In this document: positions 39,120 to 57,115 of the stretch, piece after piece
Layout: each line of letters opens with the position of its first letter
How positions within the stretch are numbered: position 1 is the stretch's first letter
NCBI GenBank assembly: GCA_902780135.1
Contig: CACZEK010000013.1
Coordinates: forward strand, 46,470-110,469
Source of the DNA: an uncultured bacterium
GTDB lineage: Bacteria > Verrucomicrobiota > Lentisphaeria > Victivallales > UBA1829
Reading direction: 5' to 3'
Length of the DNA: 64,000 bases
Notes under the pieces: generated by a model
Seen by the model: only the letters and a program-made list of their open reading frames with translations
Database searches by the model: none
Told to the model about the DNA's origin: nothing
Made by a program: the position numbers and the translations under genes

Positions 39120-39296
39120 CGAAGTATGCGGCAGATAAAGACTGCAGGAGAAGGCAGAGGATTAATCACTTCAATTATCGATTTTTGCGACAACACAGAA
39201 AATATTGAAAAAATGCTTGCTTTTTATCCTCGAGCGTTTATATTAGTGTAGTATAGGCTAACACAAACCACTTTCTTTGAGCTCAAGGAGCCTGCT

Positions 39297-42200
39297 TTGA
39301 ATCAACAATTCAGTTCGGCAAACAAGGCGAAGATCACGATCCTGATCCTCGGTCTTCTGACATTATCCCTGCTCGGATTCCTCTTTTTCAACCTGAACAG
39401 GATGAACCGCAATACCGAAGAGACGAAACGGACCCACGACTATTTCATGGACTGCCACGCGGCGGGCGCTCTGATCCGCCACGGCTCGGACGTCATGACG
39501 AACGCCGTGGAACGCTACGTCATCACGGGGAACTACGTTTTCCGGGACCTTTTCTTCAAGGAAGCGAATATGGACCGGAACCGCGACAAGGGTCTGGAAA
39601 AGGTGAAGGACCTGCCGAACGGTCTGACCGTGCGGCGCGACCTGGAGAACGCCATGCGATATTCCGTGGAGCTGATGGGCCTCGAATTCCACGCCATGCG
39701 CCTGGTCATCTCCGACAAGGAACTGACCGAGCCCGACTGCCCGCCCGAGGTGCGCGACTACATCCTGCCGGAGGACGAGAAATCCGCCTCGCTCGAAGAG
39801 CGGAGGAAGATCGCGGAGAACATCATCTTCGGCCTGAACTATCTCACGTACAAGGACCACATCTATGCCGCCATCGACAAGAGCCTGGACGACGCGGAGA
39901 AATTCCTGACCGACTACCGCAAGAGCCTCACGGACCAATACAAGCGCCTGTTTTTCTACCAGCTTTGCGGATATGCCGGATTCTTCCTGTCCCTGCTCAC
40001 CCTCGTGACGTTCCTGATCCGCCAGCACGGCCGCGCGAACGCGTTTCTCCGCAAGGTGCTGGACAATATCCCGATGCTCTTCTACATCAAGGACGCCCGT
40101 TCGCAGCGTTACGTGGACTGCAACATCGCGTTTTCGCGTTTCGCCTGCCGGAACACGGTCGCGGAAGTGGTCGGCAACAGGGACGCCGAAATCTTCGACG
40201 AAGCCACCGCGCTGCAGATTGAGGAGGACGACAGCAAAACGCTCTCCGTCGACGCGGCCAATTCGTATATCGAGAACACACTCGACGCGCAGGGGAAGCC
40301 GTGCAGTTTCCTGACGACCAAGCTCAAAATCTCCGACCTGGACGGCCACACCTGCATTTTCGGCATGTCCCAGGACGTAACCGAAACCACGCAGAAACAG
40401 CGCAACAACGAGGCGCTGGCCGAAGCTCTGCTCGCTCTTCAGACCAATGAAGCGGTCTCCCATCCGCAGAAGGTGATCGAGGTCATCCGCAAACGCCTCG
40501 ACGCGGACTTCTGCCACCTGATCCGCGTCGACGAGGCGGCCGGCCAGGCGATCGTCGAGCCGGACTGCCATGCCCACCTCGATCCCGCGACCCCCTGCGA
40601 ACGGGTCGTCGCCGACCTGGACGATTTCCTCTATTTCACCAAGCGCGTCGTCGCCCTGGAGCCGTTCGAGATCGACGAACATGCTCCGCTCGAAATCCTC
40701 CGCATGTACGCCGTGCTGGACGCGGAGAACGGCGCATGGCAGCCGACCACGACGTACTCCATGCCGGTCGTCTGCAACGACGACATCTTCGGGTCGCTGG
40801 CGATCGGCTATGCGAAGAAACGCATCCTCTCCGAAAGCGAAAAGGAGTTCATCCAGACGAGCGTGAAGATCCTGGAGAACGCGCTGGAACGCCAGAAGAC
40901 CTACAGAGACCTCAGCGTGGCGAACTCCCGGATCAACCGCGAGTTCGATTTCGTGAACAACATCTTCGAGATCATGCCCATCCCGTGCGCTATCAAGGAC
41001 GTCGAGAACGACTACCGCTGCATCCGCTGCAACGACGCCTACGCCAAACTGTTCCATAAGGACCAGTCGGAGGTCGCCGGAATGAACAGCGCAGACCTTT
41101 TCGCGCCGGAAATCGCGCAGCGCCTCCGCAAGGCCGACAAGGAGGCCGTGCGCGAGAACAAGATGATCTTCGAGGAGCTGGTCTGCGTCTTCCCGGACGG
41201 CGTGGAGCACACGTTCCTCTACCGCCGCGGCCCGATGAACCTGCCGGACGGCCGCCTGGTGCTGTTCTGCGTGGCGGAAGACATCACGGAGCTCCGTCTC
41301 CAGACCAACAAGGTGATCCAGATCAACGAACAGCTTCAGGGCGAATACCAGCGCGCCGTCAACGCCGAGGAGGCCGAGACGTTCTTCGCCAAATCGCTCA
41401 AGTCCATCCTGGCGATGCCGCCCGACCAGGACGCGATCATCCCGAGCATCGAGGAAGTCGGCAAATACATCGACGCCGACCGCTGCTTCATTTATTACAG
41501 TAATAAAAACGACGACGGCGAAGTGCGCTGGAACCTCGCCTACGAATGGTGCGCAGAGGACATCGAACGCAAATTCCAGGGCATATACGACATCCACATG
41601 TTCCCCGACGTCTGCGAGGCGCTCGAAAAAGGCGAGGACTACCTCGCCGCCGACGTGCAGCAGATCAACCCCGTCACGTGCTCCTGGCTCCAGATGCAGA
41701 AGGTCCAGTCGCTCATCATCACGCCGCTCTGCAACGAGAACAACGAGCTCTTCGGCTTCATCGGGTTCGATTTCGTGCGGCAGGCGCAGGAGCGCTTCTC
41801 CGAACGCATCCTCCGAAGCGTGCACGAGGCCGCCGACGTGATCCTGATCTGCCGCGAACGCAACAAGCGCCAGGAGATCATGTTCAGGGCCGTCGCCGAG
41901 GAGAAGCTCCGTTCGGAGATCTTCGAAAGCGCCGCCATCCCGCTTCTGCTCTTCAAGCCGGACGGAGAGGTCGTGACCGCGAACTCGGCCGCGCTCAAGG
42001 CGTTCGGCAACGATCTCCAGCACGTCGTCGGCTGCAAATGCCACGACTTCGTCTGCCAGTACGACTCTCCCCCGGAGAAATGCCCGCTGCGCCATCCCGA
42101 GCAGGATTCGCAGTCGTTCCTGCTCCACCGACGCGACGGCCGGTATTTCGCGATCAAGACGCAGACGATCCGCGACGAAAACGGCGATCCGCAGTACATC

Positions 42201-44054
42201 CTGGAATGCGCGGTCGACATGACGGAGACCCACGAGCTCCACGAGAACGCCGAGGCCATCGCACAGTCGCTCTTCGCACTCCAGTCCGAAAACGTCATTT
42301 CCAGTCCGATCCATGTCCTGAGCATCATCCTGAAACGCCTCTCCGCCGACGCCGTCTACATCGCGCAGTACGACCAGCAGAACGGCGTCGCGTTCATGGA
42401 ACCGGAATACACGCTCTTCAGGAACGGAGGCGTTCTCGAAAAACGCACCGAGGCAAAGCTCGATGATCTCGCCGTCTTCCTCAACCAACTCCAGGACGAA
42501 GGCGTCTGCGAGTTCCACGGCAGCAGCCGCAGCCTGATCGTCAGCGCCTACGAGAAGCATTCCCCCGGCGTTCATATCCCGCCGTGCGAGACCCTCGTAC
42601 TCGTCCCGCTGGAAGTCCGCGGAAAGAGCTGGGGCAACCTCGGCATCTCCTACGCCGCGCACCGTTCCCTCGGCATCCACGAAAAAGACTTCTTCATCCG
42701 CTGCCGCGAAGTGCTCGAAGCCGCGCTGGACCGCAAGCTCACCGACAGCGATCTGCATGCCGCGCTCGACAAGGAGATCGAGGCGGAACGCGCCAAGAGC
42801 TTCTTCTTCTCGGCGGTCAGCCACGACATCCGCACCCCGCTCAACGCCATCATCGGCTACTCCGAACTGCTCATCTGCGGGATCTTGGACGAACAGGAAC
42901 GCTCCAAAGCGCTGTCCGCCATCTCCACCAGCGGCCAGACATTGCTCCAGCTCATCAACGACGTGCTGGACCTTTCCAAGCTCGAATCCGACCGGATGGT
43001 CATCACGCCCGTGCTCACGGACGTCCGCGAACTCGCCTCCTCCGTGCTGCACTCGTTCGACGTGTCCGTCATGAACACCGACGTGGAGCTGAAGGAGGAT
43101 TTCGGTCCCATGCCGCTGCTCGAAGTCGACCCGCAGCGCATCCGCCAGATCCTGTTCAACCTCATCGGCAATGCCGTCAAGTATACGGAACACGGGGAAA
43201 TCCGCGTCAGCGCCGTGTTCCGGAACGACATCGGCGACGAGAAGGGCGTCTTCACGCTCTCCGTCTCGGACACCGGGTGCGGCATCCCGGACGAGGAGAA
43301 GGAAAAGCTTATGAGCCCGTTCGCGAAGGCGGGCGCCGACGCGAAAACCAAGGGAACCGGACTCGGCCTCACCATCTGCAGGCAGCTTGCGGCACGCATG
43401 GGCGGCCATTTCTCGTTCGTATCCGAACTCGGCAAAGGCTCCACGTTCACGCTCGAACTGCGCGACGTGAAGAGCGCACGGCGTTCGCCGGAGACCAACA
43501 AGAAGATCGCCGCCGGACAGGAACTCATCCGCGAACGCATGAAGCGAAGCGAAGCGGCCAAGGGGAAAAAACCGGCTGAGGAACAGAAAATCACGCAGCC
43601 CGCGGAGAAAAAGACGGCTGAGGAACAGAAGCCCGCGCCGCCCGCGGAGAAAAAGCAGAAAAGCGCTCCGATCGCCGTGACGAACAACATGCCGGAACGG
43701 AAGTGCCGCACACTGATCGCGGACGACGTTCCGCTGAACCTCGCGGTCCTGAAGGCGCTCCTCGCGAAGATCGGCATCCGCGACGTCGTGACCGCCGTGG
43801 ACGGAAAGGACGCGTGGGACAAGCTCCAGGCGTCGGAAAAACCGGTCGAGCTGATCCTGACCGACATCTGGATGCCGGAAATGGATGGCCGGGAGTTCGT
43901 CGCAAAGATACGCGCGGACGAACGGTTCAAGGAGCTTCCCGTCTATGCCGTCACCGCCGACATCGAGGAACAGAAACTTTTCGTCGAACACGGATTCACG
44001 GGGATTCTCCTGAAGCCGGTTACCGTCGACAAACTGTCCGGGATTTTCAACTGA
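39297..44054 (+). CDS. Hybrid sensor histidine kinase/response regulator with multiple PAS/GAF-type sensor modules
   Basis: 1585 aa. TTG start with RBS aaggag 6 nt upstream. N-terminal TM 'ITILILGLLTLSLLGFLFF' and a second TM 'FYQLCGYAGFFLSLLTLVTFLI'. HisKA H-box 'FFFSAVSHDIRTPLNAIIGYSELL'. HATPase_c 'GNAVKYTEHG...DTGCGIP...GTGLGLTICRQL'. REC 'TLIADDVPLNLAVLKALL...LILTDIWMPEMDG...AVTAD'. Confidence 0.92.
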   Translation: MNQQFSSANKAKITILILGLLTLSLLGFLFFNLNRMNRNTEETKRTHDYFMDCHAAGALIRHGSDVMTNAVERYVITGNYVFRDLFFKEANMDRNRDKGLEKVKDLPNGLTVRRDLENAMRYSVELMGLEFHAMRLVISDKELTEPDCPPEVRDYILPEDEKSASLEERRKIAENIIFGLNYLTYKDHIYAAIDKSLDDAEKFLTDYRKSLTDQYKRLFFYQLCGYAGFFLSLLTLVTFLIRQHGRANAFLRKVLDNIPMLFYIKDARSQRYVDCNIAFSRFACRNTVAEVVGNRDAEIFDEATALQIEEDDSKTLSVDAANSYIENTLDAQGKPCSFLTTKLKISDLDGHTCIFGMSQDVTETTQKQRNNEALAEALLALQTNEAVSHPQKVIEVIRKRLDADFCHLIRVDEAAGQAIVEPDCHAHLDPATPCERVVADLDDFLYFTKRVVALEPFEIDEHAPLEILRMYAVLDAENGAWQPTTTYSMPVVCNDDIFGSLAIGYAKKRILSESEKEFIQTSVKILENALERQKTYRDLSVANSRINREFDFVNNIFEIMPIPCAIKDVENDYRCIRCNDAYAKLFHKDQSEVAGMNSADLFAPEIAQRLRKADKEAVRENKMIFEELVCVFPDGVEHTFLYRRGPMNLPDGRLVLFCVAEDITELRLQTNKVIQINEQLQGEYQRAVNAEEAETFFAKSLKSILAMPPDQDAIIPSIEEVGKYIDADRCFIYYSNKNDDGEVRWNLAYEWCAEDIERKFQGIYDIHMFPDVCEALEKGEDYLAADVQQINPVTCSWLQMQKVQSLIITPLCNENNELFGFIGFDFVRQAQERFSERILRSVHEAADVILICRERNKRQEIMFRAVAEEKLRSEIFESAAIPLLLFKPDGEVVTANSAALKAFGNDLQHVVGCKCHDFVCQYDSPPEKCPLRHPEQDSQSFLLHRRDGRYFAIKTQTIRDENGDPQYILECAVDMTETHELHENAEAIAQSLFALQSENVISSPIHVLSIILKRLSADAVYIAQYDQQNGVAFMEPEYTLFRNGGVLEKRTEAKLDDLAVFLNQLQDEGVCEFHGSSRSLIVSAYEKHSPGVHIPPCETLVLVPLEVRGKSWGNLGISYAAHRSLGIHEKDFFIRCREVLEAALDRKLTDSDLHAALDKEIEAERAKSFFFSAVSHDIRTPLNAIIGYSELLICGILDEQERSKALSAISTSGQTLLQLINDVLDLSKLESDRMVITPVLTDVRELASSVLHSFDVSVMNTDVELKEDFGPMPLLEVDPQRIRQILFNLIGNAVKYTEHGEIRVSAVFRNDIGDEKGVFTLSVSDTGCGIPDEEKEKLMSPFAKAGADAKTKGTGLGLTICRQLAARMGGHFSFVSELGKGSTFTLELRDVKSARRSPETNKKIAAGQELIRERMKRSEAAKGKKPAEEQKITQPAEKKTAEEQKPAPPAEKKQKSAPIAVTNNMPERKCRTLIADDVPLNLAVLKALLAKIGIRDVVTAVDGKDAWDKLQASEKPVELILTDIWMPEMDGREFVAKIRADERFKELPVYAVTADIEEQKLFVEHGFTGILLKPVTVDKLSGIFN

Positions 44055-44095
44055 ACGAGGTGTCTCCAAACCAGCTTTTGTAACTTGCAGGAGGA

Positions 44096-47002
44096 ATGGA
44101 TTTGAAAACGGAAGACTTGAACCCGTCATCCGGCGGACTCACTCACTATCTGTCTACTTTGGGCGCGCTTGCGCTCTCCTTCGGTTACGCGGTCGGCTGG
44201 GGCGCGTTCGTAATGCCCGGAACGACCTTCCTGCCCGGCGCGGGACCGCTCGGCACCGTGATCGGCGTGCTCTTCGGTGCACTGGCGATGGGGATATTCG
44301 CCGTCAACTACCATCGCCTGACGAACCGGTATTCCGGCCCCGGCGGCGCGGCGACCTTCGCGCAGAGGGTGTTCGGCGAAGACCACGGCTTCGTCGTCGC
44401 ATGGTTTCTCTGGCTGACTTATATCGCCATCCTCTGGGCGAACGCCACTGCCATGATCCTGATCGTGCGCTTCACGCTCGGCGACGTTCTCCAGTTCGGC
44501 TTCCATTACACCGTCGCCGGATTCGATGTGTATTTCGGCGAAGTGCTGCTCGCCATCATCTCGGTCCTTGTCTGCGGCGGAATCTGCCTTGTGAGCAAAA
44601 AGCTTGCCATAATCACGCAGATCGTCTTCGCCCTGATCCTCGCCGGAGGCGTGTTTTACATCTTTTTCTTCGCGCTTGCGCATCACACGGGCGGCATGTC
44701 GGCCATGGCGCCCGCGTTCATGGACGACGTCAACCCCGTTATGCAGATTTCGCGTATCCTGGCGCTGATGCCGTGGGCTTTCGTCGGCTTCGAGGCCATC
44801 ACGCACTCTTCGGGTGAATTCCGTTTCCCGCTGAAAAGGACGGCGGCCATCCTGATCGCCGCAATCGTCATCTCCACCTTTGTCTATCTCTTCCTGGCCC
44901 TGCTGCCGGTCGTCACGCTGGACGCCGACCATCGGTCCTGGATCGAGCACATCAAGGAACTGCCGAACCTTTCCGGCATCAGGAGCGTGCCCGTGTTCGC
45001 CTCGGCGGAACATCTCCTGGGACGGAAGGGTGTCGCGCTGATGTGCACGCTGATGATCGCAGGCCAGATCACGGGCATCATCGCGTCGATCATTGCGATC
45101 AGCCGCCTTATGCACGCCATGTCCAAATCGAATATCCTGCCGAAACGGCTGGGAGAGCTCAACGCCGCCGGGATCCCCAGAAACGCCATCCTCTTCATCG
45201 TCGGCATCTCCTGCGTGATCCCGTTCTTCGGTCGCACCGCTATCGGCTGGCCCGTGGACGTCTCCAGCATCGGCGCGGCGATCGCGTACGGCTACACGTC
45301 CGCGGCGGCGTTCCGGATCCGCGACAACAGCGAAAAATACAGGCATCTCTTCATCAAGGGCTCCGGCCTGGTCGGCGTGCTCTTCTCGATCCTTTTCTGC
45401 CTCCTGCTGGTGATCCCGAACTACATCACGGGCAGCGTCATGGCGGCGCCGTCCTATCTGCTCCTCGCCGTCTGGTGCATCCTGGGCTTCCTTCTCTACC
45501 ACAGAGTGTTCAGGGAGGGACACCAGCACCGTTTCGGACGCTCCATGGTGGTCTGGAATTCCCTCGTCGTCACCATCATCTTTGCCTCCCTGATGTGGGT
45601 GCGCCAGTCCTCGTTCGAAAGCGCCAAGTCCACCATTTACGAGTGCATGACCTTGATCGCCGGGAACGACGGAGCCGAAAAGGAACAGACCATCGAAAAA
45701 CTCGGCTCGCTCAACGTCTCCATGCTCTGCAGTGCGGTCGTCGAGATGACCCTGCTCCTGATCTCGCTTGGGATCCTGTACAGCCTGATTTCCATCCTGC
45801 GCAAACGCGAGCTGAGACTGGCGTCGGAAAAGGCGAAGATCGAGGAGATGAACAAGACAAAAAGCTTTTTCTTCTCGTCCGTGTCCCACGACATCCGCAC
45901 GCCGCTCAACGCCATCATCGGCTACGCCGAGCTCCTGCTCGACGGCATCGACGACCGGGACGAACGGGACAAGGCGCTGTCCGCCATTTCCACCAGCGGC
46001 CAGACCCTGCTTCAGCTCATCAACGATGTGCTGGACCTCTCCAAGCTCGAATCCGGCAAGATGGACATCAAGCCGGAACTCACCGACGTCCGCGAGATCG
46101 TTTCCGCCGTGCTCCACTCCTTCGACGTGACCACCCGGAACAGCGACGTGGAGCTGAAGGAGGAATTCGGCCCGATGCCGCTGCTCGAAGTCGACCCGCA
46201 GCGCATCCGCCAGATACTTTTCAACCTCATCGGCAACGCCGTCAAGTTCACGGAACACGGCGAAATCCGCGTCCGCGCCTCCTTCTGGAACAAGCTGGGC
46301 GGGGAGAACGGCGGCGTTTTCGTTCTCTCCGTCTCGGATACAGGGTGCGGCATCCCGGACGAGGCAAAGGACAAACTGATGAATCCGTTTGTGCAGGTCG
46401 ACACGGATGCGAAGATCAAGGGGACCGGACTCGGCCTCGCCATCTGCAAACAGTTTGCGGCCCGGATGGGTGGCGATCTGTCGTTCGTCTCCGAACTCGG
46501 CAAAGGTTCCACGTTCACGCTGGAACTGCGCAACGTGAAGTTCGCCGCTAAAGCCCCGGATGATGACAAAAAGGCCTCGGACGTCAGGAAAGATATCGAA
46601 AAGGCAAAGAACTGTGCGAACGCGCTCCTCGCGAAGCAGCGCATGCGGAGCTGCCGCATGCTGGTCGTCGACGACGTCCCGCTGAACCTCGCCGTCCTGA
46701 AGGCGCTCCTCACAAGGATCGGTCTGCGCGATGTCGCGACCGCCGTCGACGGGCAGGACGCATGGGAAAAGATTCAGGCGTCGGACAAGCCGTTCGATCT
46801 GATCCTGACCGACATGTGGATGCCGAAGATGAACGGCAGGGACCTGGTCGCGAAGATACGCACGGACGAACGGTTCAAAGACATTCCCGTCTACGCCGTC
46901 ACCGCCGACACCGAGGCGCGGAAGACATTTGCAAAATACGGCTTCACGGGGATTCTCCTGAAGCCGCTGACCATAGACAAACTGTCCGAACTGTTCAACT
47001 GA
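44096..47002 (+). CDS. APC-family amino acid permease domain fused to HisKA-HATPase_c-REC (transporter-hybrid histidine kinase)
   Basis: 968 aa with RBS aggagg. The N-terminal ~560 aa contain >=12 hydrophobic segments with an APC-like start 'LSTLGALALSFGYAVGWGAFVMPG'. A short coiled linker ('RKRELRLASEKAKIEEMNKTK') follows, then H-box 'FFFSSVSHDIRTPLNAIIGYAELL', HATPase_c, and REC ('MLVVDDVPLN...LILTDMWMPKMNG'). Confidence 0.88.
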   Translation: MDLKTEDLNPSSGGLTHYLSTLGALALSFGYAVGWGAFVMPGTTFLPGAGPLGTVIGVLFGALAMGIFAVNYHRLTNRYSGPGGAATFAQRVFGEDHGFVVAWFLWLTYIAILWANATAMILIVRFTLGDVLQFGFHYTVAGFDVYFGEVLLAIISVLVCGGICLVSKKLAIITQIVFALILAGGVFYIFFFALAHHTGGMSAMAPAFMDDVNPVMQISRILALMPWAFVGFEAITHSSGEFRFPLKRTAAILIAAIVISTFVYLFLALLPVVTLDADHRSWIEHIKELPNLSGIRSVPVFASAEHLLGRKGVALMCTLMIAGQITGIIASIIAISRLMHAMSKSNILPKRLGELNAAGIPRNAILFIVGISCVIPFFGRTAIGWPVDVSSIGAAIAYGYTSAAAFRIRDNSEKYRHLFIKGSGLVGVLFSILFCLLLVIPNYITGSVMAAPSYLLLAVWCILGFLLYHRVFREGHQHRFGRSMVVWNSLVVTIIFASLMWVRQSSFESAKSTIYECMTLIAGNDGAEKEQTIEKLGSLNVSMLCSAVVEMTLLLISLGILYSLISILRKRELRLASEKAKIEEMNKTKSFFFSSVSHDIRTPLNAIIGYAELLLDGIDDRDERDKALSAISTSGQTLLQLINDVLDLSKLESGKMDIKPELTDVREIVSAVLHSFDVTTRNSDVELKEEFGPMPLLEVDPQRIRQILFNLIGNAVKFTEHGEIRVRASFWNKLGGENGGVFVLSVSDTGCGIPDEAKDKLMNPFVQVDTDAKIKGTGLGLAICKQFAARMGGDLSFVSELGKGSTFTLELRNVKFAAKAPDDDKKASDVRKDIEKAKNCANALLAKQRMRSCRMLVVDDVPLNLAVLKALLTRIGLRDVATAVDGQDAWEKIQASDKPFDLILTDMWMPKMNGRDLVAKIRTDERFKDIPVYAVTADTEARKTFAKYGFTGILLKPLTIDKLSELFN

Positions 47003-47005
47003 ATG

Positions 47006-47230
47006 TCATAGAGTGGCGAGGGTGTCTTTCCCCATTTCCTCGAAGATTCGTTCCGAGGTGAAGTCGAGGGAAGCACCCGCTTGTGCAAGCATGGCATGCT
47101 GTTCGGAACCATCGCCGCAAAACTTGAGCGTAATTTCACTCGTGCCGGTGACCTTGACGCTGTTCGCGCCATCCGTGTAAGTCAGCGTTTTTGCGTCCCT
47201 GTTCGTTTCACTGCCTGACGCTATCCAAGA
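47006..47230 (-). pseudogene. Orphan 3' fragment homologous to the C-terminal ~75 aa of the giant RTX protease (51506-56701)
   Basis: '[39 protein letters not shown]...LDFTSERIFEEMGKDTLATL*' aligns with 'LWFASGSEENWDADNLTYTDGENNVTVSG..QITLKFGNDR...LEFSSQRIFEESGKGILASL*'. No start codon or upstream homology. The upstream part of the tracked ORF overlaps the kinase gene in another frame. Confidence 0.65.
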
Positions 47231-50200
47231 TGGATCGGTCCACTGCTGTCGCCCGTTTCCCTGTCTTCGATGATGCGTTTGACCATGTTGGAGAGTTTTT
47301 CCTTGGTGAGGGGCTTCAGGATGATGGCGTTGAAATGCGACATATCGAAATTGGCGCTTGTTTCGACATCGGCAGTCTGCGCGACGATCGGAATATGAGC
47401 GAATCTGGGATTGTTCTTCACTTCGACAGAGAGCTGCATGCCGTTCATTTCCGGCATCCACATATCGGAAAGGATCAGGTCAACAGGCTGTTTGTCGAGA
47501 AAAACGAGAGCCTCCTTGCCAGAACCGGCGGTGAAGACATTGCTGAATCCGATCTTGTTGAAGAGCGCCTTTGCGACGCGGAGATTCATCGGGACGTCGT
47601 CGACAATGAGAATGCTGATCTTCTTCACATCGCGCGCAAGAGTTTCCTCCGCCTTAGCTTGTGGCTTGGACTGCGCCTTATCCGGCTGGACAGCCTTTGC
47701 ACGGTACCGCACGGTGTTGAGCGTCACCGTGAACGTGCTGCCTTCGCCAATACTACTGGAGCAGGTCAGTTCGCCGTTCATACGGGTTGCCAGACGTTTG
47801 GAGATGGAGAGACCGAGACCAGTACCGTTGTTCGTAGCATTCGTGCCACGTAAATTGGAGAGCTGGACGAACGGTTCCATGAGCTTCTTTTGGTCGTCCT
47901 CGGAAATGCCGATACCGGTGTCGCTGACGGCACATTTGAGCGTACCGGTGTCCACGGAATCCGAATCGGGCGTGAAGGAGACATGGAGCGTAATGGTTCC
48001 ATTCTTTGTGAACTTGACGGCGTTGCCGAGCAAGTTGATAAGGATCTGGCGGATGTGAATGTTGTCGACGTCAAGTTCCGGCAGGTCTTCGGGCACGTCT
48101 GAGACAAGTTTATTGTCGTTCTCCTGGGCTCGGAACATGAAGATGAGCAGGACCTCGCGACAGAGGTCATTGAAGTCGGTGAACGCGGTGATGATCTGCA
48201 TCTGGTTCGCCTCAAGCTTGGAGAGGTCGAGCACGTCATTGATGAGCATGAGCAGGGCGTTTGCCGAGGAGGAAATAGCGTCGAAGTACTCTTTCTCCTG
48301 TTTGGGGGATGCGCCGCCGTCGCGGAGGAGTTCGGCGAATCCGATGACGGAGTTCAGCGGCGTACGGATTTCGTGACTGACGCTGGCGATGAAGAAGCTC
48401 TTCGCCTTGTCGGCGGCCTGGGCGCGGGCAAGTGCATCCATGATGAGCGCCTTGGCGCGTTTCCTGGAGAGGACGACTTCAACGATGTGGACCGTGGCGC
48501 GCAGGAGAGAGAGATCGTTCTCTGTGAATGAATGATCGACGCCCTCGAAGTTGAACCCGATGGCACCCCAGATTTCGCCATTGCAGGTGATGTTCGACAG
48601 GAACATCGCCCGAAGATCGAACCGAATGACAGTCTGATGCATCTCTTCCGCAACTTTACTCCAGTCAAGGGTCTTGAAGTCGCTGCATATGAACATGCGA
48701 TTGTTATCCGTCGCCCCCATGAGTCCGCCGGTACGGCTGAACCTGCGGTTAAGCATTCTGAAGTTGGCATAGGAATGTTTCGGTTCGACGTATTCGGAGA
48801 TGCATTGCACCATATTCCCGTCGCTCTCGTGCTTCATCAAGCTGCCGCGACTGGCACCAAGGATCTTGCAGACACTTTCCAGCGTGCGCTGGATGCACAA
48901 GTCGAAATCGTCCTCACCAATGATGTCCTCAAGCAAGTTGTTGACGAGTTTCTGGTTCTGCAGGATCCTGTGCATGTCCGTGACGTCGCTGCCCGCCGCC
49001 AGGAGCAGACGGTGTCCCCGTGCGTCCTTGAACACCCTCATGAGAGTCTTGATGTAACGCAGATCGCCGTTTCCGTCTTTGAGCTCGCCTGCGATCTCCA
49101 TGAGGCCGTCTGTTCCGGTCGTCGAGGAATTGATCTGGTCGGCGAAACCGAGGATCGTATCGTCGTGGAAGATTTCGTGGTCCGTCTTGCCGACGATCTC
49201 TTCAGGCGAAAAGCTGAAGCCCTTTACAAATGCCTTGTTGCAGAGAAGATACCGGAAATCGTCGTCCATATCCTTCACCGTGAACATGATGGGGATGGCG
49301 TTGATTGCGGCGTCCCACAGGGCCTGGGTGTCTTTCAGCTTCAACATATTCACCGCAAGTTCGGTCACGTCCTGCATGATGCCGGTAACCATGGGCACCT
49401 CAGGTTTGCTCAGATCGAGCTTGACTTTCATGCGATAGTAATGGATATTGTCGGCCGGACCAACCCGGAACGAGAACTGCACAGTCTCGTTTGCCACATT
49501 CTTTCCGATCAGAGAGTTCATGTTTTCTTTGAAGACCGGAAGGTCTTCCGGATGGACCCATTGCTCCTCGGGAATTGCTTCTCCGTTCTCGTCCACGGGC
49601 CACAGTTCGTTAATCAGGCTGGACCCGGTGCGTTTGTGCGAGTATATCTCATAGTGGAACGATGCCAGACGGGCTATTTCGGACGCGCCTTCGAGGTCTT
49701 CCTGTTTCCTTTCGAGGTCCAGCCGCTGTTTTTCGATGGTTTCGGAGTTTTCCTTCATTTCCCGGTATGCGACCTCCAGTTCCCGGTTCATCCTCGTCAG
49801 TTTCCTGTTGCTGATCCGGTTGCCGACTATCAAAACGATCAGGGTAAGCAGGACTATGATCGTGCCGTGGAACAACAGGAAATGGTCGCGGATAAAGTCC
49901 AGGATCGAGTAGGAGTAAAACTGTCCCAGATAGGAATACGCCCTCTTGTTGACAAAAGCGGAATCAAGCAGCGTCAGTCCGCGGTTCATCAGCAGCATCA
50001 GGCCAACGTTTTCATCCGAAAACGCCATGTAGAAGATATAATCTGTCTGGGCCTGAGCCTTCTTGATGGAATGGTATTTTTTCGGTTTTAACAGTGCCTC
50101 GGACCTGAGCCCGTTCAGGAATGTTCCGTCCGACGTCCCGTCCAGCAGTCCATCGAGACATTCCTGGATACTGTCATAGAACACGACTTCCGAGTAGGGA

Positions 50201-51423
50201 TAGGAATCCCTGCTGTTGTAGTACTGCATCAGGTTGTGCCTGTTGACGCCGATGCGTTTGCCCCTGCCGTCCCCGAAATCGTCCAGGAATGCAAGGTCGC
50301 TTGTAAGCGTGGCGAGGATCTTTCCGCCCATGATGCGGAAATCATGTTTGACCGACGTGCTGATATAGGCGGGAAGCATGATGTCGACTTCCCCGGATTC
50401 GACGGCCTGATATCCCGTTCTCTGATCGCTGTAGCAGATGAACTCGACTTTCAGCGTGTCTTCCAAGTTCAGTTTTTTGACGATTTCTTTGACCGCTTCG
50501 ATGCATGCGCCGGTCGGGTTGCCGTTCCTGTCCAGAGAAGAAAACGGAAGGTAATTGTCGAAAAATCCGACGCGCAGCACTTTGTGATTCGCGATCCAGT
50601 TCTTTTCCTCCACTGTCAGATTGTAACTCAATATGGTATCGGAAAAGTACCGTTCTTGAATCCTGGAGAAATAGAAAAGATCGTTGTTCAGCACTTTGTC
50701 CAGCGCGGAATTGATGTCTTCGATCAGATCGGGTCTTGTTTTGTTTGCGACCAGATAGTAGACGGAAGAGCCGATTTTTTCAATTGCCGAGATATTGGGC
50801 TTCGCCAGCATGTTCACTTCCAGATCGAGATCGAGCTTGCCGGCGATCAGATCCGCCTCTTTGTCCGGAATGGATTTGTACTCGACAAACTTCAAATCCA
50901 CGTTTTTCTTTTTGCACCATTCCTTCAGGAGTTCGATCTGCAGCGTTCCGATCGTGACGCCGACTGTCTTGCCATTCAGCGACGTATAATCGCCAGGAGT
51001 AATAGAGGTATTCTGATCCGATGCGTACAGATAGTAGTATTCTTTTGCCATCGGTTCGTCCGGGTACAAGATCTCTTTTGTGCGTTCCTCCGTAAAGCTG
51101 ATGTCATACATGAGATCGACTTCGCCCGCAAGAAGCGCCTCCACGCTGGAGGAAAAACTGTCGCAGTAAACAAATTCGATATCCCATCCCGCATAGGTCC
51201 CGATAGCCTGAATATACTCGTAGGCATATCCTGATACCGGACGATTGTTTTCATCCAATATCATCTGTCTTTCAAAGGCGGCACAGGGAACACGGACGAC
51301 TTTCCTGGGTTTGCTATCCGCACCCCAAACCGCTCCGGACAAAAGAAAAAGCATCATGCAGAAAAGCGTGACGGAACAACGCCCCAAAAGCCGAAACTGT
51401 CTCCATTGATTGGTATAGGTCAT
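47221..51423 (-). CDS. Hybrid sensor histidine kinase with two periplasmic solute-binding (SBP_bac_3-like) domains, PAS/GAF, HisKA, HATPase_c and REC
   Basis: 1400 aa. Signal/TM '[19 protein letters not shown]'. SBP-like blocks '[33 protein letters not shown]' and '[27 protein letters not shown]'. TM '[13 protein letters not shown]'. H-box '[24 protein letters not shown]'. '[12 protein letters not shown]'. REC '[18 protein letters not shown]...[13 protein letters not shown]'. Confidence 0.92.
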
Positions 51424-51505: not shown

Positions 51506-54500
51506 CTACAGACTCGCGAGTATCCCCTTGCCGGATTCCTCGAAGATGCGCTGCGAACTGAACTCAAGGAACCCGCCGGCCAGCGTCACCTCCGAATAGA
51601 GCATGGACCGGTCGTTGCCGAATTTAAGCGTAATCTGATCGGCGGTTACGCCGGAGACCGTGACGTTGTTTTCGCCATCGGTGTAGGTCAGATTGTCGGC
51701 GTCCCAGTTCTCCTCACTGCCGGATGCGAACCACAGCAGGACCGAACCGTCCGCGAGCTGTTCCACGGTGTCCGTGCCCCAGTTTTCGCAGAACGTGAAG
51801 ATGTCGTCTCCGCCGCCGCCGTGCATGCGGTCGTTTCCGATGCCGCCCACGATGAAATCGTATCCGGACGATCCGATGATCCGGTCGTCTCCGGCATCGC
51901 CGAACAGCTGATTGTCGCCCGAATTCGCCCAGATGACGTCGTTGCCGTCGCCGCCGTGAATGCCAGTCAGGTCGCCCGTATACGCGAACCGCTGGCTGGT
52001 CATATCCACGATGTCGTCGCCCGCGCCGGCATATATCTCGGAGATCTGGAACAATCTGGCCGTCTTTTCCGCGATCCCCTCCGGCGAACCGGTGTACACG
52101 TCGTCCACAAACAGCGCATCGCCGTTCTCCGAATCCGTCAGGTACAGCATACTCACGTCCGCCGATCCGAAGAAGAGGTTCTGGATACGGCCTTTTCCTT
52201 TGGCGGAAACGAGTTCATTCGTCCCCGTCCAGCCGCCGGAGGAGCCGACGTGCTTCGCGCAATAGGTTTTGTTCCATGTCCCGGCCGGAGAGGCGAAGAA
52301 CATGTCCGTATTCCCATCTGCGTTCGACTGCACGATCTTCGGCGCACCGGGCGTGTTGTCGGACACGATCTCGTTTCCGGAGAACCATTCGCCGTCCTCC
52401 CCGATCGTGTTCCCCTCCTCATCCACGTCCGCCAGGACTTTCACGCGCCACTGATACGTTCCCTCGGGCAGTTCCGGCGTGTCGAATCCCCACCCCGACG
52501 TCTGCACGGAAAGGACGTGCTCGAAACCGTCCGTGGAGTATTCCGCGCGGAACAGATGATCCACCTCGGACGCTTCCCACAATGCACCGTCCTTCGTCCC
52601 GGTCAGCTTGCTCAGGACGACCGGCGTTTCCTCGTAGGGGATGACCGTAATGGAATATGCGTTGACCTGATCCTTGTCCAAATTGGCGTCACCCTCCACG
52701 AATAGACGGTCTCCGACGCTCATTGTCAGGGTATAGACGCCCTCTTTGTATTTGGATCCCGTGCCGGGAATTCCCTTCGGGCTGAACGCGCGCACATGAA
52801 GGCAATCTCCATTGAGACTTTCCACGGCGATCCTGACCTGGTCGGTCCCGGTGTTTACGAACTCATAGAAATCGCTGTCGCCCATGCTCGTGAGCAGGCC
52901 GGAATAATACCCCGTGCTCAACACGCTTGCCGTGTCGGGCGTCGCGTTGCCGTTGGCGTGTTTCTCGTTGCTCCCGCTCCCGGCGTAATCGAAACGGTCC
53001 ACGCCCGTCAGCCAGTCCGCATCGAACGAAAGCGCGACGTCGCACTTCGTTTCGCTGGCAAGACGCAGGAAATATTCGCCTGCAGCAAGGTCACTGAACA
53101 TTATGACATTATCTCCGGTCACGAGGGCCGAGCCATCACTGGCGAGCAGGGAGACCGAAACGGAAACTCCGGCATCGTTCACGACCCGAATGCCGCCCGC
53201 GGATTTGTCCGCCGCTGTGACGGTGAATCCGAAGTTAACGTCTCTGTCCAGCGTGACGCCGTCGATCGTTTCGCCACGCCCGGAGAAACAGCCCAGCTCG
53301 TTGACCTGGACGACCTTACCGTCCACGAGATCGGGTTTGTCGACCACATCGAACACGGCGGTCCGGGTTCCAGCGTTCCGCGCCAGATACGTCCCGGCAA
53401 GCTCGTGCAGCAAATCCGCCCATTCCGGATTGGAGCCGTACCAGGTGGTCAGATAGTCCAGGATGATCCTGTCGACCTTGTCCGCCGTATATCCGAGGCC
53501 AAGATATTCTTTGGACACTTCGATCATATTGGCGAAGCCGATGCTGTGACCGCTGTCGCCGGGGGCGCTCCGGTAATCCAGCACCACCGCGTTCAAAGTC
53601 GATTCCACGCCAGCAAGGGCGGACCGGAATCCATCGGACGTGCCGGAATAACCGGGATCCGCCTTGACCTGGAGGATCATGTCTTTCAGGTCGGATTGCA
53701 TCACTTTACCACCTGTATAGAGGCAGCGGCGCTGCGGAGCCGTCAGCATGGCATCGATGAGGACGTTTTGGTCTTCGATGTTGCCGGATACGAGCACGGC
53801 CTCGGCGAGAACTTTCAGCGAATCGGCAAGCCGGGTGTCCGTCACATCGATCGCCGTGAGCATGGACGGATACGGCATATCCGACGCTTCCCGAACGTTC
53901 TGGACCAGGACCTCCGCCATTTCTCGTGCCGTCATATCCGCGGTGATCGTGTTGAAGAACGGCCGGTAGGCATAGGTTGTGCCGCTTGACATGGACGGCG
54001 ATTCCGGGGCCACCATCACGTCCGTGCCTCCCGCCATCAGCGTGGTCGCGATGTCCGAAGCGTTCAGGCAGCTGTTGAAGATGACGAGCGGGATGTTCCC
54101 GTTCTTCTTCACGACCTCGGACACGTCCGATACCGTGAGGCAGGCGTTCAAATCCGGATCCGTCGTGAAGTCGTAGCAGAGCGTGGCGAATTCCTCGCCG
54201 TGGTCCCACAGGACCAGCGCGTAGTTCTCGGCCGGAGACTCCGCTTGAACCCATTTCACGAACCGGTCCAGAGTTTCGGCGGACCCCGTGTCGAGCTCTC
54301 CCCACGATTCCCAGTCCACCGTCACAGTCAGGCCGGAATCGTGCTTGATTTTGCCCACGCGGGTGTCCGTCCACAGCGAATCCCACCTGTATGTGCCGTT
54401 CACCGTCGGCACGTCGCCTTCCTCATAGTCCCACGGGTACTCCGGACGGTCGACCAGCACATACACGTCAATCCGTTCGTCGATGTTCGCCCGCTGGATC

Positions 54501-56626
54501 GAGATCAGGTCGTCCAGAGCCGAGGCATCCAGGTCGTTGTCCGCCGCGAAATACATCAGGTACGTCCACTTCGGTTTGACGGGTTCCTGTTTCACCCGCA
54601 GTTTTAGGGAATTGTCCTCAAAGATCAGATCGGCATAATCGCTGGTCGAGGTCCCGTTCACGGACAGCGTGAAATCCGCTTCTCCGCTGCCGGTGACGGT
54701 CACGGCCAAGTCCTGCAAATCCGTGATGCCGGTCGCGCCCGGAACGGCGGAAATGAGCGTATAGGTCCCGATTCCGGCTTTCTTCATATCCACGGAGATC
54801 GTCGCATCGGCGCAGAGCACGGATGCAGAAGACTGGATAGTAAACATCGCATGGTCGTCCCGTTCGGTCAGAACGAAATTCAACTTGGTTTTCCCGGTCA
54901 GATCTCCGATGATAGAACTGGTGCTGTCGACTGTGATCGAATCATCTCCGTCGCCTGCGTCGATGGTTCCGTACAATCTGGAATGGCCCGTCAGGGACAG
55001 GACGTCGTCGCCGTCGCCCAGCGAAACGTTTCCGACCGCGATGGAGGAATTGGAAAGGGTAAAAACATCGTTTCCGGTAGAACCGTAAAAACTCCAGCCG
55101 TTGGAATCCAGCAGGTCTTCGGATACTTCCGTGTTGTTGCTCCGGCAGGTCTGAAGAGCCTGCAGCACGGCGGCGGCTCCGTCGGAGTATCTCCCGGCGT
55201 AGATCAAAGCGTTGTCGGCGGTGACCGTGCCGGACAACGCGTCACTCATGTCGAACGCGTGGGTGTATTCGTTCGAGGTGGAAACGATCAGCGAACCGCC
55301 GGAGGCATGGAATGTCAGGATGCCTCCTTTATCTGAATAAACGCCGTATGCGGGCAGTTCATCTGTAAATACGCTGGTCACCAGCACATTCATGTTGAAG
55401 CCGTTTACCGTCGTTTCGTCTGTGACCTTGATGTTATTCTCCAATTCCACTGTCTTTCCGGCAACGGAAGAATCGAAAACGACCGTGTTGGCGCCGGCCA
55501 TTCCGGAAGCCTGTTCGAATGCGCGGAGCATTGTTCCCGTGCCGTATAAACGCGCATCGGTGACCGTGAACGTCTCCACATAATCGACCATCAGATCGTA
55601 GACGAAATCAAAGAGCTGCAGTTCGAAGATTCCTTCACGGGTGTACCATCTGGTCGCCTGGTTGTACCCCCAGCCGAAATTGATATGGAAGGTATCGGTC
55701 TCCCGGTCGTATCCGTCGATGACCAGCGCATGTCCGTGGTAAGCGGCTCCGACCACCCGGCCGGCTTCCAGATTCTCGATCAGGACCTCATACCCGGCAT
55801 CGGAGATATGAATATTGAAATCGTCATCCCAATAGCCCCAGTAATAATAGCCCATGCCCATGTAGGGACCGTCTGTGTTCACGCATTTGAAACCGGACCG
55901 GGTGAAAGTCGATTTTTTCCATGAAGCGCCGGTCGAAGCCGCGGCATATTTCGATTTATGAACCACTCCGCAGGCATAAAGCAGTGCGGCCGCGTGTTCG
56001 GCGGAATCCAGCTCGAAATCCGACAGATACTCGTTGATCGCGGCAAAGGAAAGCGTGCCGGGCGCCGATCCGTCCGACTTGATTTCGATGACAATGGGGT
56101 CGCCTTCTTCGGTGCTGTGGGAGCTTGTGTATTCATCCGAATCCTTCAGCGTCAGCGCCAGATCCAGCCCCTGCTTTTCGATGAAGTAGTAAATGAGCTG
56201 TCCGACCGCGACATTGACGCATCCGACCAGCGAGTGAGTGTCAGGTGTGACGCTCGGATCGTACGGGGTGTACTCGTCATAGCAGACCGTGGTATTGCCG
56301 CCCATCGGGCATACCCCTCTCTGGGTCCACAGGGTGGAAAGCAGAATCCCCGTCGTGTCGATGTTCCCGAACGTGATCTGGCTCGTTCCCTCGTTTCCGG
56401 CTACATCCGTGGCCTTGAAGTAATACGTTTCATTGAACGAGGCTACGATCGGTCCCGTGTATTTCTTCCATGCGCCGGATTCGCTGATGCGGAAATAGAT
56501 CTCGCTGCCGTCGTCGACCGTGGCCGTCAGCGTGGTCTGCTTCAGCACGGTCTCCGTGTCGGCGGTCAGCGTGATTACAGGCTTGGTCGTGTCAATGTTC
56601 GTGACTTCGTAGGTGTTGTCTGCCAT
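51506..56626 (-). CDS. Giant secreted multidomain protein: Ig-like, peptidase C10 (streptopain)-like, beta-helix-like region, peptidase C11 (clostripain)-like, PPC-like, C-terminal RTX Ca2+-binding repeats
   Basis: The ORF is open to 56701 (1731 aa). The ATG at 56626 has a better RBS (gaagggaacgagg) and gives 1706 aa. C10-like: 'LVGCVNVAVGQLIYYF' and 'AAYHGHALVIDGYDRETDTFHINFGWG'. C11-like: 'KWTYLMYFAADNDLD', 'YVLVDR', 'LVLWDHGEEF', 'LVIFNSCLNAS'. PPC-like: 'GDSDFYEF'. RTX: 'GGDGNDVIWANSGDNQLFGDAGDDRIIGSSGYDFIVGGIGNDRMHGGGGDDIFTF'. Confidence 0.85.
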   Translation of the reverse strand: MADNTYEVTNIDTTKPVITLTADTETVLKQTTLTATVDDGSEIYFRISESGAWKKYTGPIVASFNETYYFKATDVAGNEGTSQITFGNIDTTGILLSTLWTQRGVCPMGGNTTVCYDEYTPYDPSVTPDTHSLVGCVNVAVGQLIYYFIEKQGLDLALTLKDSDEYTSSHSTEEGDPIVIEIKSDGSAPGTLSFAAINEYLSDFELDSAEHAAALLYACGVVHKSKYAAASTGASWKKSTFTRSGFKCVNTDGPYMGMGYYYWGYWDDDFNIHISDAGYEVLIENLEAGRVVGAAYHGHALVIDGYDRETDTFHINFGWGYNQATRWYTREGIFELQLFDFVYDLMVDYVETFTVTDARLYGTGTMLRAFEQASGMAGANTVVFDSSVAGKTVELENNIKVTDETTVNGFNMNVLVTSVFTDELPAYGVYSDKGGILTFHASGGSLIVSTSNEYTHAFDMSDALSGTVTADNALIYAGRYSDGAAAVLQALQTCRSNNTEVSEDLLDSNGWSFYGSTGNDVFTLSNSSIAVGNVSLGDGDDVLSLTGHSRLYGTIDAGDGDDSITVDSTSSIIGDLTGKTKLNFVLTERDDHAMFTIQSSASVLCADATISVDMKKAGIGTYTLISAVPGATGITDLQDLAVTVTGSGEADFTLSVNGTSTSDYADLIFEDNSLKLRVKQEPVKPKWTYLMYFAADNDLDASALDDLISIQRANIDERIDVYVLVDRPEYPWDYEEGDVPTVNGTYRWDSLWTDTRVGKIKHDSGLTVTVDWESWGELDTGSAETLDRFVKWVQAESPAENYALVLWDHGEEFATLCYDFTTDPDLNACLTVSDVSEVVKKNGNIPLVIFNSCLNASDIATTLMAGGTDVMVAPESPSMSSGTTYAYRPFFNTITADMTAREMAEVLVQNVREASDMPYPSMLTAIDVTDTRLADSLKVLAEAVLVSGNIEDQNVLIDAMLTAPQRRCLYTGGKVMQSDLKDMILQVKADPGYSGTSDGFRSALAGVESTLNAVVLDYRSAPGDSGHSIGFANMIEVSKEYLGLGYTADKVDRIILDYLTTWYGSNPEWADLLHELAGTYLARNAGTRTAVFDVVDKPDLVDGKVVQVNELGCFSGRGETIDGVTLDRDVNFGFTVTAADKSAGGIRVVNDAGVSVSVSLLASDGSALVTGDNVIMFSDLAAGEYFLRLASETKCDVALSFDADWLTGVDRFDYAGSGSNEKHANGNATPDTASVLSTGYYSGLLTSMGDSDFYEFVNTGTDQVRIAVESLNGDCLHVRAFSPKGIPGTGSKYKEGVYTLTMSVGDRLFVEGDANLDKDQVNAYSITVIPYEETPVVLSKLTGTKDGALWEASEVDHLFRAEYSTDGFEHVLSVQTSGWGFDTPELPEGTYQWRVKVLADVDEEGNTIGEDGEWFSGNEIVSDNTPGAPKIVQSNADGNTDMFFASPAGTWNKTYCAKHVGSSGGWTGTNELVSAKGKGRIQNLFFGSADVSMLYLTDSENGDALFVDDVYTGSPEGIAEKTARLFQISEIYAGAGDDIVDMTSQRFAYTGDLTGIHGGDGNDVIWANSGDNQLFGDAGDDRIIGSSGYDFIVGGIGNDRMHGGGGDDIFTFCENWGTDTVEQLADGSVLLWFASGSEENWDADNLTYTDGENNVTVSGVTADQITLKFGNDRSMLYSEVTLAGGFLEFSSQRIFEESGKGILASL

Positions 56627-57115
56627 CCTCGTTCCCTTCAAAAGATTTTTTTTCCGTTTCGTGTCAACAATATAACACGCACCCGCGAAAAATACAAGCA
56701 TCCTGATGAAAAACGCCGTAACAGATCGCTCTGCTGCGGCGCTGAGGTGATTTTCTCCGTTTTCAAATTAGTATTTTACGTCACCTTGGAAACATCCGAA
56801 ATGTCGTCGCGGTATTCCGGCGCGGACTGGAATTCCACTTTGTAGGTCTGGCCGTATTTGTTGAAATCGTTGAATATAGCGCATCCTCGTATTTTACAAG
56901 TCCCCGGCAAAAAAAAGCAAAAGAACGCGAACATTTTTCCGCGGGTTTCGTTCGGCTTCCGGCGTACAATAGTCAGCCGGATTTCTCTTTTCCCGAATCT
57001 TTTTTCAGGAATGGCGCACTTCCCCTTGATTTTTCGATTTAACCGTGTTATATTTAGGCTGAAATCCATTCGACAACCTCATAACTCAAAGAGAACCAAC
57101 GGAGGACAGTTCTAC

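Follow-up and report, generated by a model that had tools for sequence, protein, structure and literature searches.

Fusions of a transporter with a histidine kinase still have the reputation of being rare. Two such kinases, CbrA and CrbS, contain an SLC5 domain; this domain has the LeuT fold and is a member of the amino acid/polyamine/organocation (APC) superfamily, and CbrA is at once a histidine transporter and a signalling protein (PMC7918813, PMC13022988). A 2026 structure paper called CbrA a "rare transceptor" (PMC13022988), and prokaryotic transceptors have been described as oddities (PMC11109136). In Ks-Amt5 of "Candidatus Kuenenia stuttgartiensis," the Amt module binds ammonium but does not carry it across the membrane, and the amount of phospho-histidine changes in response to ammonium (PMC5764959). 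Here, we describe a different fusion, encoded in 64,000 nucleotides of DNA from an uncultured rumen bacterium of the Victivallales (GenBank assembly GCA_902780135.1, a draft genome of 29 contigs; contig CACZEK010000013.1, positions 46,470 to 110,469). This whole stretch is referred to as the window. The gene in question encodes a protein of 968 residues, termed APC-kinase below, in which a permease of the APC family proper is joined to a hybrid histidine kinase. We conclude that APC-kinase is probably a membrane sensor kinase that has a complete APC-family permease fold as its ligand-gated input and feeds a phosphorelay. The family to which it belongs has hundreds of members in ruminant-gut genomes.

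Like CbrA, CrbS/MxtR, and PrlS, APC-kinase has a LeuT-fold transporter of the APC superfamily N-terminal to a histidine kinase, and like CrbS/MxtR and PrlS, it is a hybrid with a C-terminal receiver. CbrA, CrbS, and PrlS, however, have the order SLC5-STAC-PAS and 13 transmembrane (TM) helices of the SSF type, whereas APC-kinase has AA_permease_2, 12 + 2 TM helices, and neither STAC nor PAS; its last TM helix passes straight into the DHp domain, with only 28 residues between TM14 and the phospho-acceptor His598. The CbrA type is found in Proteobacteria, while members of the APC-kinase family occur across many phyla of rumen anaerobes. Ks-Amt5 likewise uses a transporter fold as a sensory module coupled directly to a kinase, but it is unrelated in fold (a trimeric Amt/Rh channel as opposed to LeuT), in ligand, and in oligomeric logic. 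The APC-kinase family resembles CbrA/CrbS and Ks-Amt5 in its working but belongs to neither. An earlier note on this DNA, made from the sequence alone, had stated that no APC-fold/kinase fusion was known to be characterised. This needs qualifying as regards the LeuT fold and the APC superfamily, given CbrA and CrbS; it holds for the APC family proper, whose fusion with a kinase is the uncharacterised part. No paper on a family of APC/AA_permease-kinase fusions was found in open-access PMC and bioRxiv, and a study in a subscription journal is possible.

The domains of APC-kinase lie in a single uninterrupted frame (Table 1). At an E value of 0.01 or below, Pfam recognised only AA_permease_2 (residues 19-442, 98.4 bits against a cut-off of 27, E = 5.9e-28), AA_permease (residues 26-446, 85.7 bits against 24.6), HisKA, HATPase_c, and Response_reg, and no PAS, HAMP, GAF, STAC, or SSF domain; nor was there a match to Ammonium_transp. 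Hydropathy gave approximately 14 membrane segments, which, together with an AlphaFold model, resolve into 12 core TM helices, TM13 (residues ∼484-502), and TM14 (∼543-561). The model was of the full-length monomer, used 52 homologues, and had a mean predicted local distance difference test score (pLDDT) of 75.7. The distribution of Lys and Arg fits the positive-inside rule with both termini inside, which places the kinase in the cytoplasm. The earlier note had described an N-terminal permease of ∼560 residues with at least 12 TM helices, followed by a coiled linker of ∼25 residues and then directly by HisKA-HATPase_c-REC without PAS, HAMP, or GAF. This structural description is correct in all points; the linker measures 28 residues from the end of TM14 to His598 and is helical in the model. 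Close homologues are annotated merely as "amino acid permease," and the annotation of the gene in the window's genome is hereby corrected. As to the start codon, a Shine-Dalgarno-like GGAGGA at 44090-44095 abuts the annotated ATG with no spacer; a TTG at 44102, two codons inside the frame, offers an alternative at a more typical distance and may be where translation truly begins.

The fold of the membrane region is genuinely that of the APC family and not that of a generic multi-TM sensor. Residues 15-482 of the model superimposed on AdiC (5j4n) with a Z score of 36.5 and a root mean square deviation of 2.6 Å over 419 of 436 residues. Foldseek matched residues 1-480 to AdiC (TM-score 0.85), GkApcT (0.80), and y+LAT1, and all structural matches of the permease domain were LeuT-fold transporters of the APC superfamily. 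When the N-terminal 560 residues served as a single-sequence query, no PDB sequence was matched. A profile built from the N-terminal domain and its stand-alone relatives matched GkApcT (E = 1.9e-24), CAT1, LAT2, and xCT, these four at E values of 1e-24 to 1e-19, and also CAT4. A generic sensor of the 5TMR/7TMR type, the possibility against which the earlier note had set its permease assignment, is ruled out by the Pfam, Foldseek, profile, and AdiC results taken together. None of the NCBIfam subfamily models reached its cut-off, the best being TIGR00905 (basic amino acid/polyamine antiporter; 62 bits against 409), so the protein represents a divergent subfamily without an assigned substrate. 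In the ESM Atlas, only generic "APC family permease" clusters were found, the names of which give no substrate.

APC-kinase shares fold, family, the TM1 G-x-G, and the TM6 G-F-(D/E) with AdiC, GkApcT/CAT, and the LAT/SLC7 transporters (TC 2.A.3). These are stand-alone proteins, whereas APC-kinase has two further TM helices and a kinase, and Trp replaces the Ser/Thr of G-S/T-G. G34-W35-G36 in the unwound part of TM1 aligns with G42-T43-G44 of GkApcT, and W227-A-F-V-G231-F-E233 in TM6 aligns with F231...G235-F-D237; these motif positions are at least 98% conserved. When 187 fused proteins were compared with 59 stand-alone relatives, residues G34, W35, G36, N116, R125, E149, W227, G231, F232, R337, R380, W385, and D388 were at least 94% conserved in both sets. 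This conservation of pocket and gate residues indicates that the ligand site is under selection. The stand-alone relatives, which are "APC family permease" proteins of 460 to 480 residues with 38 to 42% identity from metagenome assemblies (the named ones from Bacteroidales), also share the motifs IGWGAFVMPG and PWAFVGF and nearly all pocket residues. They differ from the fused forms in ending after TM12 and at two positions in or beside the aligned pocket segments: position 233 is Glu in 99% of the fused proteins versus Asp in 81% of the stand-alone ones, and position 331 is Thr, Asn, or Ser versus Phe. T326 is likewise specific to the fused forms.

TM13, a periplasmic stalk, and TM14 form a hairpin that is missing from the stand-alone relatives. 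In the model, residues 484-522 (TM13 and an extension) and 528-616 are each helical, and the latter is a single helix in which the periplasmic stalk, TM14 (543-561), the linker, and DHp helix 1 with His598 follow one another without a break. The spacing of 28 residues from TM14 to the phospho-acceptor His is nearly invariant in the family, being 27 to 29 residues in 169 of the 187 fused proteins, which come from several phyla. W501 and R571 are ∼99% conserved among these 187, and position 550 is Glu or Gln. W501 and R571 are also kept in forms fused to GGDEF and in fusions to other outputs.

The hybrid kinase is, judged by its residues, catalytically complete. H598, N714, D748/G750/G752, G776/G778/G780, D859/D860, D906, T936, and K956 are invariant in the 52 homologues, and all catalytic residues are present; HisKA, HATPase_c, and Response_reg each exceed their Pfam cut-offs. 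The C-terminal half gave Foldseek matches to HK853, ShkA, RetS, and GacS.

In a scan of one genome per species, at least 577 relatives were found, and the best 80 loci were examined. The open frames of these 80 loci are APC-kinase fusions, with the exception of two APC-GGDEF proteins and one frame cut by a contig end. The earlier note had called for a survey of the distribution of the fusion, and the fused family proved widespread, occurring in metagenome-assembled genomes (MAGs) of rumen and ruminant-gut bacteria from at least six phyla. The best 80 loci include Kiritimatiellae/Verrucomicrobia, Lachnospiraceae, Butyrivibrio, Pseudobutyrivibrio ruminis, Oscillospiraceae, Ruminococcus, Selenomonadaceae, Veillonellaceae, Acidaminococcaceae, Treponema, Synergistales/Fretibacterium, Flexilinea, and Atopobiaceae, and the nearest among them is from rumen MAG RUG14783 (91%). 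Most family members are found in Gram-positive rumen bacteria. In the phylum of the window, the distribution is patchy: 9 of 301 sampled genomes have the fusion, with up to four paralogues per genome.

In a FastTree phylogeny, a branch with support of 100 separates all fused forms from the stand-alone relatives, a topology compatible with a single origin of the fused forms. Ten sequences listed as stand-alone form the sister group of the fused clade. Several of these may be truncated gene calls, since every Lachnospiraceae and Selenomonadaceae locus among the 80 is fused; their stand-alone status is doubtful, and they were not relied on.

The APC module, with its TM13-TM14 hairpin, also occurs on other outputs. 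It is fused to GGDEF in two proteins of 743 residues (L058:2541-4772, + strand) and 762 residues (L068:6907-9195, + strand), the second of which stands in tandem behind an APC-kinase. It is fused to HK-REC-Hpt in L037 and L031 and to HK-REC-REC in L098 and L083. Because the same module is found on all of these outputs, it appears from its domain combinations to behave as a portable input domain. In this family, a bona fide amino acid permease fold connects to a kinase or diguanylate cyclase, and no cytoplasmic sensor domain stands between the two. With one helix, a fixed linker, and swappable outputs, the family offers an unusually clean system for the conversion of LeuT-fold alternating access into a signal.

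Relay partners were sought among neighbouring genes, which, in this high-GC DNA, were used only if confirmed by BLAST or Pfam. In 16 loci, a stand-alone Hpt protein (111 to 133 residues) is encoded beside the APC-kinase gene or the kinase cluster to which that gene belongs; the four such neighbours that were scanned all scored above the Pfam Hpt cut-off. Twelve loci have a REC-GGDEF-EAL protein (∼567 residues), usually in the order REC-GGDEF-EAL, Hpt, APC-kinase (L064, L074, L076, L083, L088, L089, L090, L095, L098, and L106; also L061 and L072, the latter a Treponema locus with a GGDEF-EAL gene and no Hpt). The hosts of this operon include Lachnospiraceae, Clostridia, Clostridiales, Ruminococcus, Anaerovoracaceae, Mogibacterium, Atopobiaceae, and Flexilinea. 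The gene order implies a cyclic di-GMP (c-di-GMP) output for many family members. Members of one protein cluster of HisKA-HATPase_c-REC kinases (261 to 1,037 residues) lie near the gene in 22 of the 74 loci with callable neighbours, and by a stricter test, three loci have a sensor-less REC-HisKA-HATPase_c-REC protein of ∼525 residues.

The window's genome has about 10 hybrid kinases and a single Hpt candidate, a protein of 106 residues on contig 12 (L014:6200-6520, − strand). It scores 21 to 22 bits (Pfam cut-off, 24.6), and HTMFG replaces the usual H-x-x-K-G. The gene overlaps by 4 nucleotides the end of a gene for a 563-residue REC-SpoIIE(PP2C)-HATPase_c_2 protein (L014:6517-8208, − strand), and glycosyltransferase genes flank the pair. 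The pairing resembles the HptB/HsbR partner switching of Pseudomonas aeruginosa. The position of the Hpt candidate beside REC-PP2C-HATPase_c_2 points to an output of the partner-switching type in this genome, and the pair could be a common output of the ∼10 hybrid kinases. A search of the window's genome with the REC-GGDEF-EAL protein of L064 as the query did not find a homologue, only the REC part being matched, and a c-di-GMP output is therefore not assumed for it. The ligand of the family could reveal a nutrient or amine that rumen bacteria monitor for behaviour controlled by c-di-GMP or partner switching.

These results suggested a mechanism for APC-kinase. A small solute would bind in the conserved central pocket formed by TM1 (G34-W35-G36) and TM6 (W227...G231-F-E233). 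The binding, or a rocking-bundle motion triggered by it, would pass to the family-specific TM13-TM14 hairpin, and the motion of TM14 would set the balance of autophosphorylation and phosphatase activity at His598 through the linker, the helix of which is predicted and the length of which (27 to 29 residues) was measured. As the domain set and the gene neighbours suggest, the phosphoryl group would then move to the protein's own receiver (Asp906), a stand-alone Hpt, and a terminal response regulator. We infer that the permease domain directly gates the kinase; this is the most economical reading, favoured by three features: TM14 and the DHp helix are continuous in the model, the linker length hardly varies, and the module recurs with other outputs. 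The permease may still translocate, as a CbrA-like transceptor would, or may only bind, as a Ks-Amt5-like receptor would; the two are about equally likely, and Ks-Amt5 is the best mechanistic precedent for the second variant.

Several points weigh against ligand-gated signalling through the permease. The evidence for the unbroken helix is an AlphaFold model of the monomer, in which this region has a pLDDT of 65 to 90. In most of the 80 related loci, no relay partner is encoded within 4 kb, and the Hpt candidate of the window's genome, besides falling below the Pfam cut-off, is unlinked to the APC-kinase gene, being on another contig. The hints as to the ligand come solely from the sequence alignment with GkApcT and the ranking of fold matches and are weak, and no ligand, transport, or phosphorylation data were found for any family member in the open-access literature (PMC and bioRxiv). 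Finally, because the transporter domain of CbrA is dispensable for kinase signalling (PMC7918813), physical fusion is no proof that the permease is the sensor.

The last point leads to the alternative that survives best, which we nevertheless regard as unlikely: the permease would be simply a working transporter or membrane anchor, the kinase would answer some other signal, cytoplasmic or in the membrane, and the fusion would only co-localise uptake and regulation, a view that has been argued for CbrA. In a variant that we include in the same estimate, APC-kinase would act as a phosphatase or relay partner of the PAS/GAF hybrid kinase encoded next to it. When over-expressed without the SLC5 domain, CbrA continues to autophosphorylate and to activate its target (PMC7918813). 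The neighbouring PAS/GAF kinase has very similar DHp, catalytic, and receiver domains, which makes shared partners or mixed dimers possible, and the pocket residues are equally conserved in the stand-alone permeases, which fits retained transport. APC-kinase, however, unlike CbrA, has no PAS, STAC, or other cytoplasmic sensor between membrane and DHp, and its linker length is tightly fixed family-wide. Recombination of the module with GGDEF and other outputs would also be hard to explain for an anchor.

Control in the reverse direction, with the phosphorylation state of the kinase or receiver regulating transport by the fused permease, is very improbable. Cytoplasmic regulatory domains do control APC-superfamily transporters, and KimA-c-di-AMP structures were among the fold matches. 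However, a complete HisKA-HATPase_c-REC module and neighbouring Hpt and response regulator genes are built for onward signalling, and nothing in the protein gives the kinase an independent input.

Within the preferred reading of APC-kinase as a ligand-gated sensor kinase, there are weak pointers to the nature of the ligand. Position 331 aligns in HMMER with Met321 of GkApcT, a residue that limits side-chain size. A weak hint of a cationic ligand, either an amino acid or an amine, comes from the aromatic residues W35 and W227, from the small side chain at position 331, and from AdiC and CAT being the best fold and profile matches; we hold this assignment to be possible but doubtful. The proton-coupling residues Glu115 and Lys191 of GkApcT align with T108 and L182 (HMMER). 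Exchangers such as AdiC are also without those residues, and the two substitutions would say nothing decisive about transport. A broader version of this reading is that the APC fold with its TM13-TM14 hairpin is a general plug-in membrane receptor that no longer transports, that arose once and reached rumen and gut anaerobes of at least six phyla through gene transfer, and that senses a gut-specific cationic metabolite and drives phosphorelays and c-di-GMP enzymes by direct helical coupling. We put it forward tentatively, as a possibility less likely than not to hold in full. If true, it would define a large class of prokaryotic receptors, unstudied as far as our searches reach and far more numerous than the "rare" transceptors of the CbrA type. 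A gene for a rhodanese of ∼130 residues lies directly downstream of APC-kinase in eight loci (L047, L052, L057, L069, L079, L096, L101, and L103), mostly from Selenomonadaceae/Selenomonadales, with Oscillibacter and Oscillospiraceae represented by one locus each; the idea that this neighbour indicates a ligand with sulfur was rejected because the association is too lineage-restricted. The only other long APC-superfamily fusion in the window's genome (G000:C19; L107:1240-3504, − strand) has AA_permease and an SLC12 C-terminal domain in 754 residues and is of the cation-chloride-cotransporter type, not a sensor.

Table 1. Coordinates of APC-kinase, its parts, and the adjacent kinase genes in the window
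Feature	Coordinates	Strand	Residues and details	Evidence
APC-permease-fold sensor hybrid histidine kinase gene (APC-kinase; P0001)	44096..47002	+	968 aa	ORF list, translation, Pfam
APC-family permease core	44138..45541	+	aa 15-482; 12 TM, LeuT fold	Pfam, PDB profile, Foldseek, AdiC alignment, motif conservation
Extra helical hairpin	45545..45778	+	aa 484-561; TM13, ∼40-aa periplasmic helical stalk, TM14	Hydropathy, model, conservation
Cytoplasmic helical linker	45779..45859	+	aa 562-588; continuous with TM14 and DHp helix 1	Model helix 528-616, spacing
HisKA (DHp)	45860..46057	+	aa 589-654; phospho-acceptor His598	Pfam E 5e-21; H598 invariant (52-sequence alignment)
HATPase_c	46193..46531	+	aa 700-812; N714, D748/G750/G752, G776/G778/G780	Pfam E 3.8e-27; invariant columns; fold matches
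Receiver	46661..46990	+	aa 856-965; D859, D860, phospho-acceptor D906, T936, K956	Response_reg E 4.7e-21; invariant columns
PAS/GAF hybrid histidine kinase, upstream gene	39297..44054	+	1585 aa	Pfam; transmitter likeness; G208 synteny
SBP_bac_3-PAS-GAF hybrid histidine kinase, convergent neighbour	47221..51423	-	1400 aa	Pfam, BLASTP

APC-kinase is flanked by two further hybrid kinases. A gap of 41 nucleotides, with no promoter-like or terminator-like site, separates its gene from that of the upstream PAS/GAF kinase, and the two are probably co-transcribed. Their transmitters are 65% identical in protein and 81 to 83% identical in DNA (42792-43472 versus 45860-46546; the segments 43698-44057 and 46646-47003 are 79 to 81% identical). 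This likeness in DNA suggests that a duplication, or a gene conversion, took place fairly recently, and mixed dimers of the two kinases through their similar DHp helices are conceivable. The transmitter of the SBP_bac_3-PAS-GAF kinase is 45% identical to that of APC-kinase (BLASTP). The arrangement suggests that three paralogous transmitters, behind cytoplasmic, membrane-embedded, and periplasmic sensors, may feed one relay. The association with two more hybrid kinases, which had been pointed out in the earlier note, is partly conserved: in 6 of 12 loci of the window's phylum, another HisKA-HATPase_c-REC kinase lies within 20 kb.

In a genome of the same genus (G208, locus L015), synteny with the window covers 39202-47003 only, which is exactly the two-kinase unit, at 92.7% DNA identity. 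A related SBP_bac_3 kinase follows APC-kinase there in the other orientation, and the sensor half of the window's SBP_bac_3 kinase (49879-51372) matches G208 inverted at 76%. The upstream side, with a type VI secretion system (T6SS), and the downstream side, with an RTX protease, are specific to the window's genome in this comparison.

The T6SS cluster (tssA, tssC, clpV, and others) lies 2 to 13 kb upstream in the window, and the earlier note had taken the position of APC-kinase next to it and to two more hybrid kinases as a sign of nutrient-linked control. That APC-kinase is a dedicated nutrient-linked regulator of this cluster is highly unlikely, however. The T6SS side lies outside the synteny with G208, most family members are in Bacillota and other groups and come from Gram-positive rumen bacteria, and no response regulator connects the kinase and the T6SS. 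A search with TssC as the one protein query gave no match in five further carriers of the fusion, including two genomes of the same genus with 92 to 94% completeness. Since TssC was not found in these carriers, the T6SS appears to be a variable neighbour and not part of the kinase unit, and the proposed connection is removed for the window's genome.

An assembly or gene-calling artefact joining a permease gene to a kinase gene, which the earlier note had raised as a danger, has a negligible chance of being the explanation, and misassembly is excluded: the frame is uninterrupted, there are more than 180 full-length fused homologues (43 to 97% identity), the junction is bridged by contigs of two other, independent ruminant-gut DNA studies (44824-45915 and 44933-45915) that reach from the permease interior to the H-box, and G208 has the identical permease-kinase arrangement. 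Residues 1-560 also served as the query of a protein search, in which each of the 120 best matches had permease and kinase domains, at 50 to 97% identity; nearly all were 920 to 1,065 residues long, receiver included, and the named ones were Lentisphaeria and Kiritimatiellae MAGs. The stretch was recovered in at least 10 ruminant-gut DNA runs from 8 studies. Short contigs on the APC-kinase gene, some without mismatches, were also present in two bovine metatranscriptome runs; such contigs, although from RNA libraries, are no proof of transcription, and nothing follows from the parts of the gene that they leave uncovered.

Beyond the SBP_bac_3-PAS-GAF kinase, the − strand at 51506-56701 encodes a protein of 1,730 residues with Peptidase_C10, Peptidase_C11, and RTX repeats.

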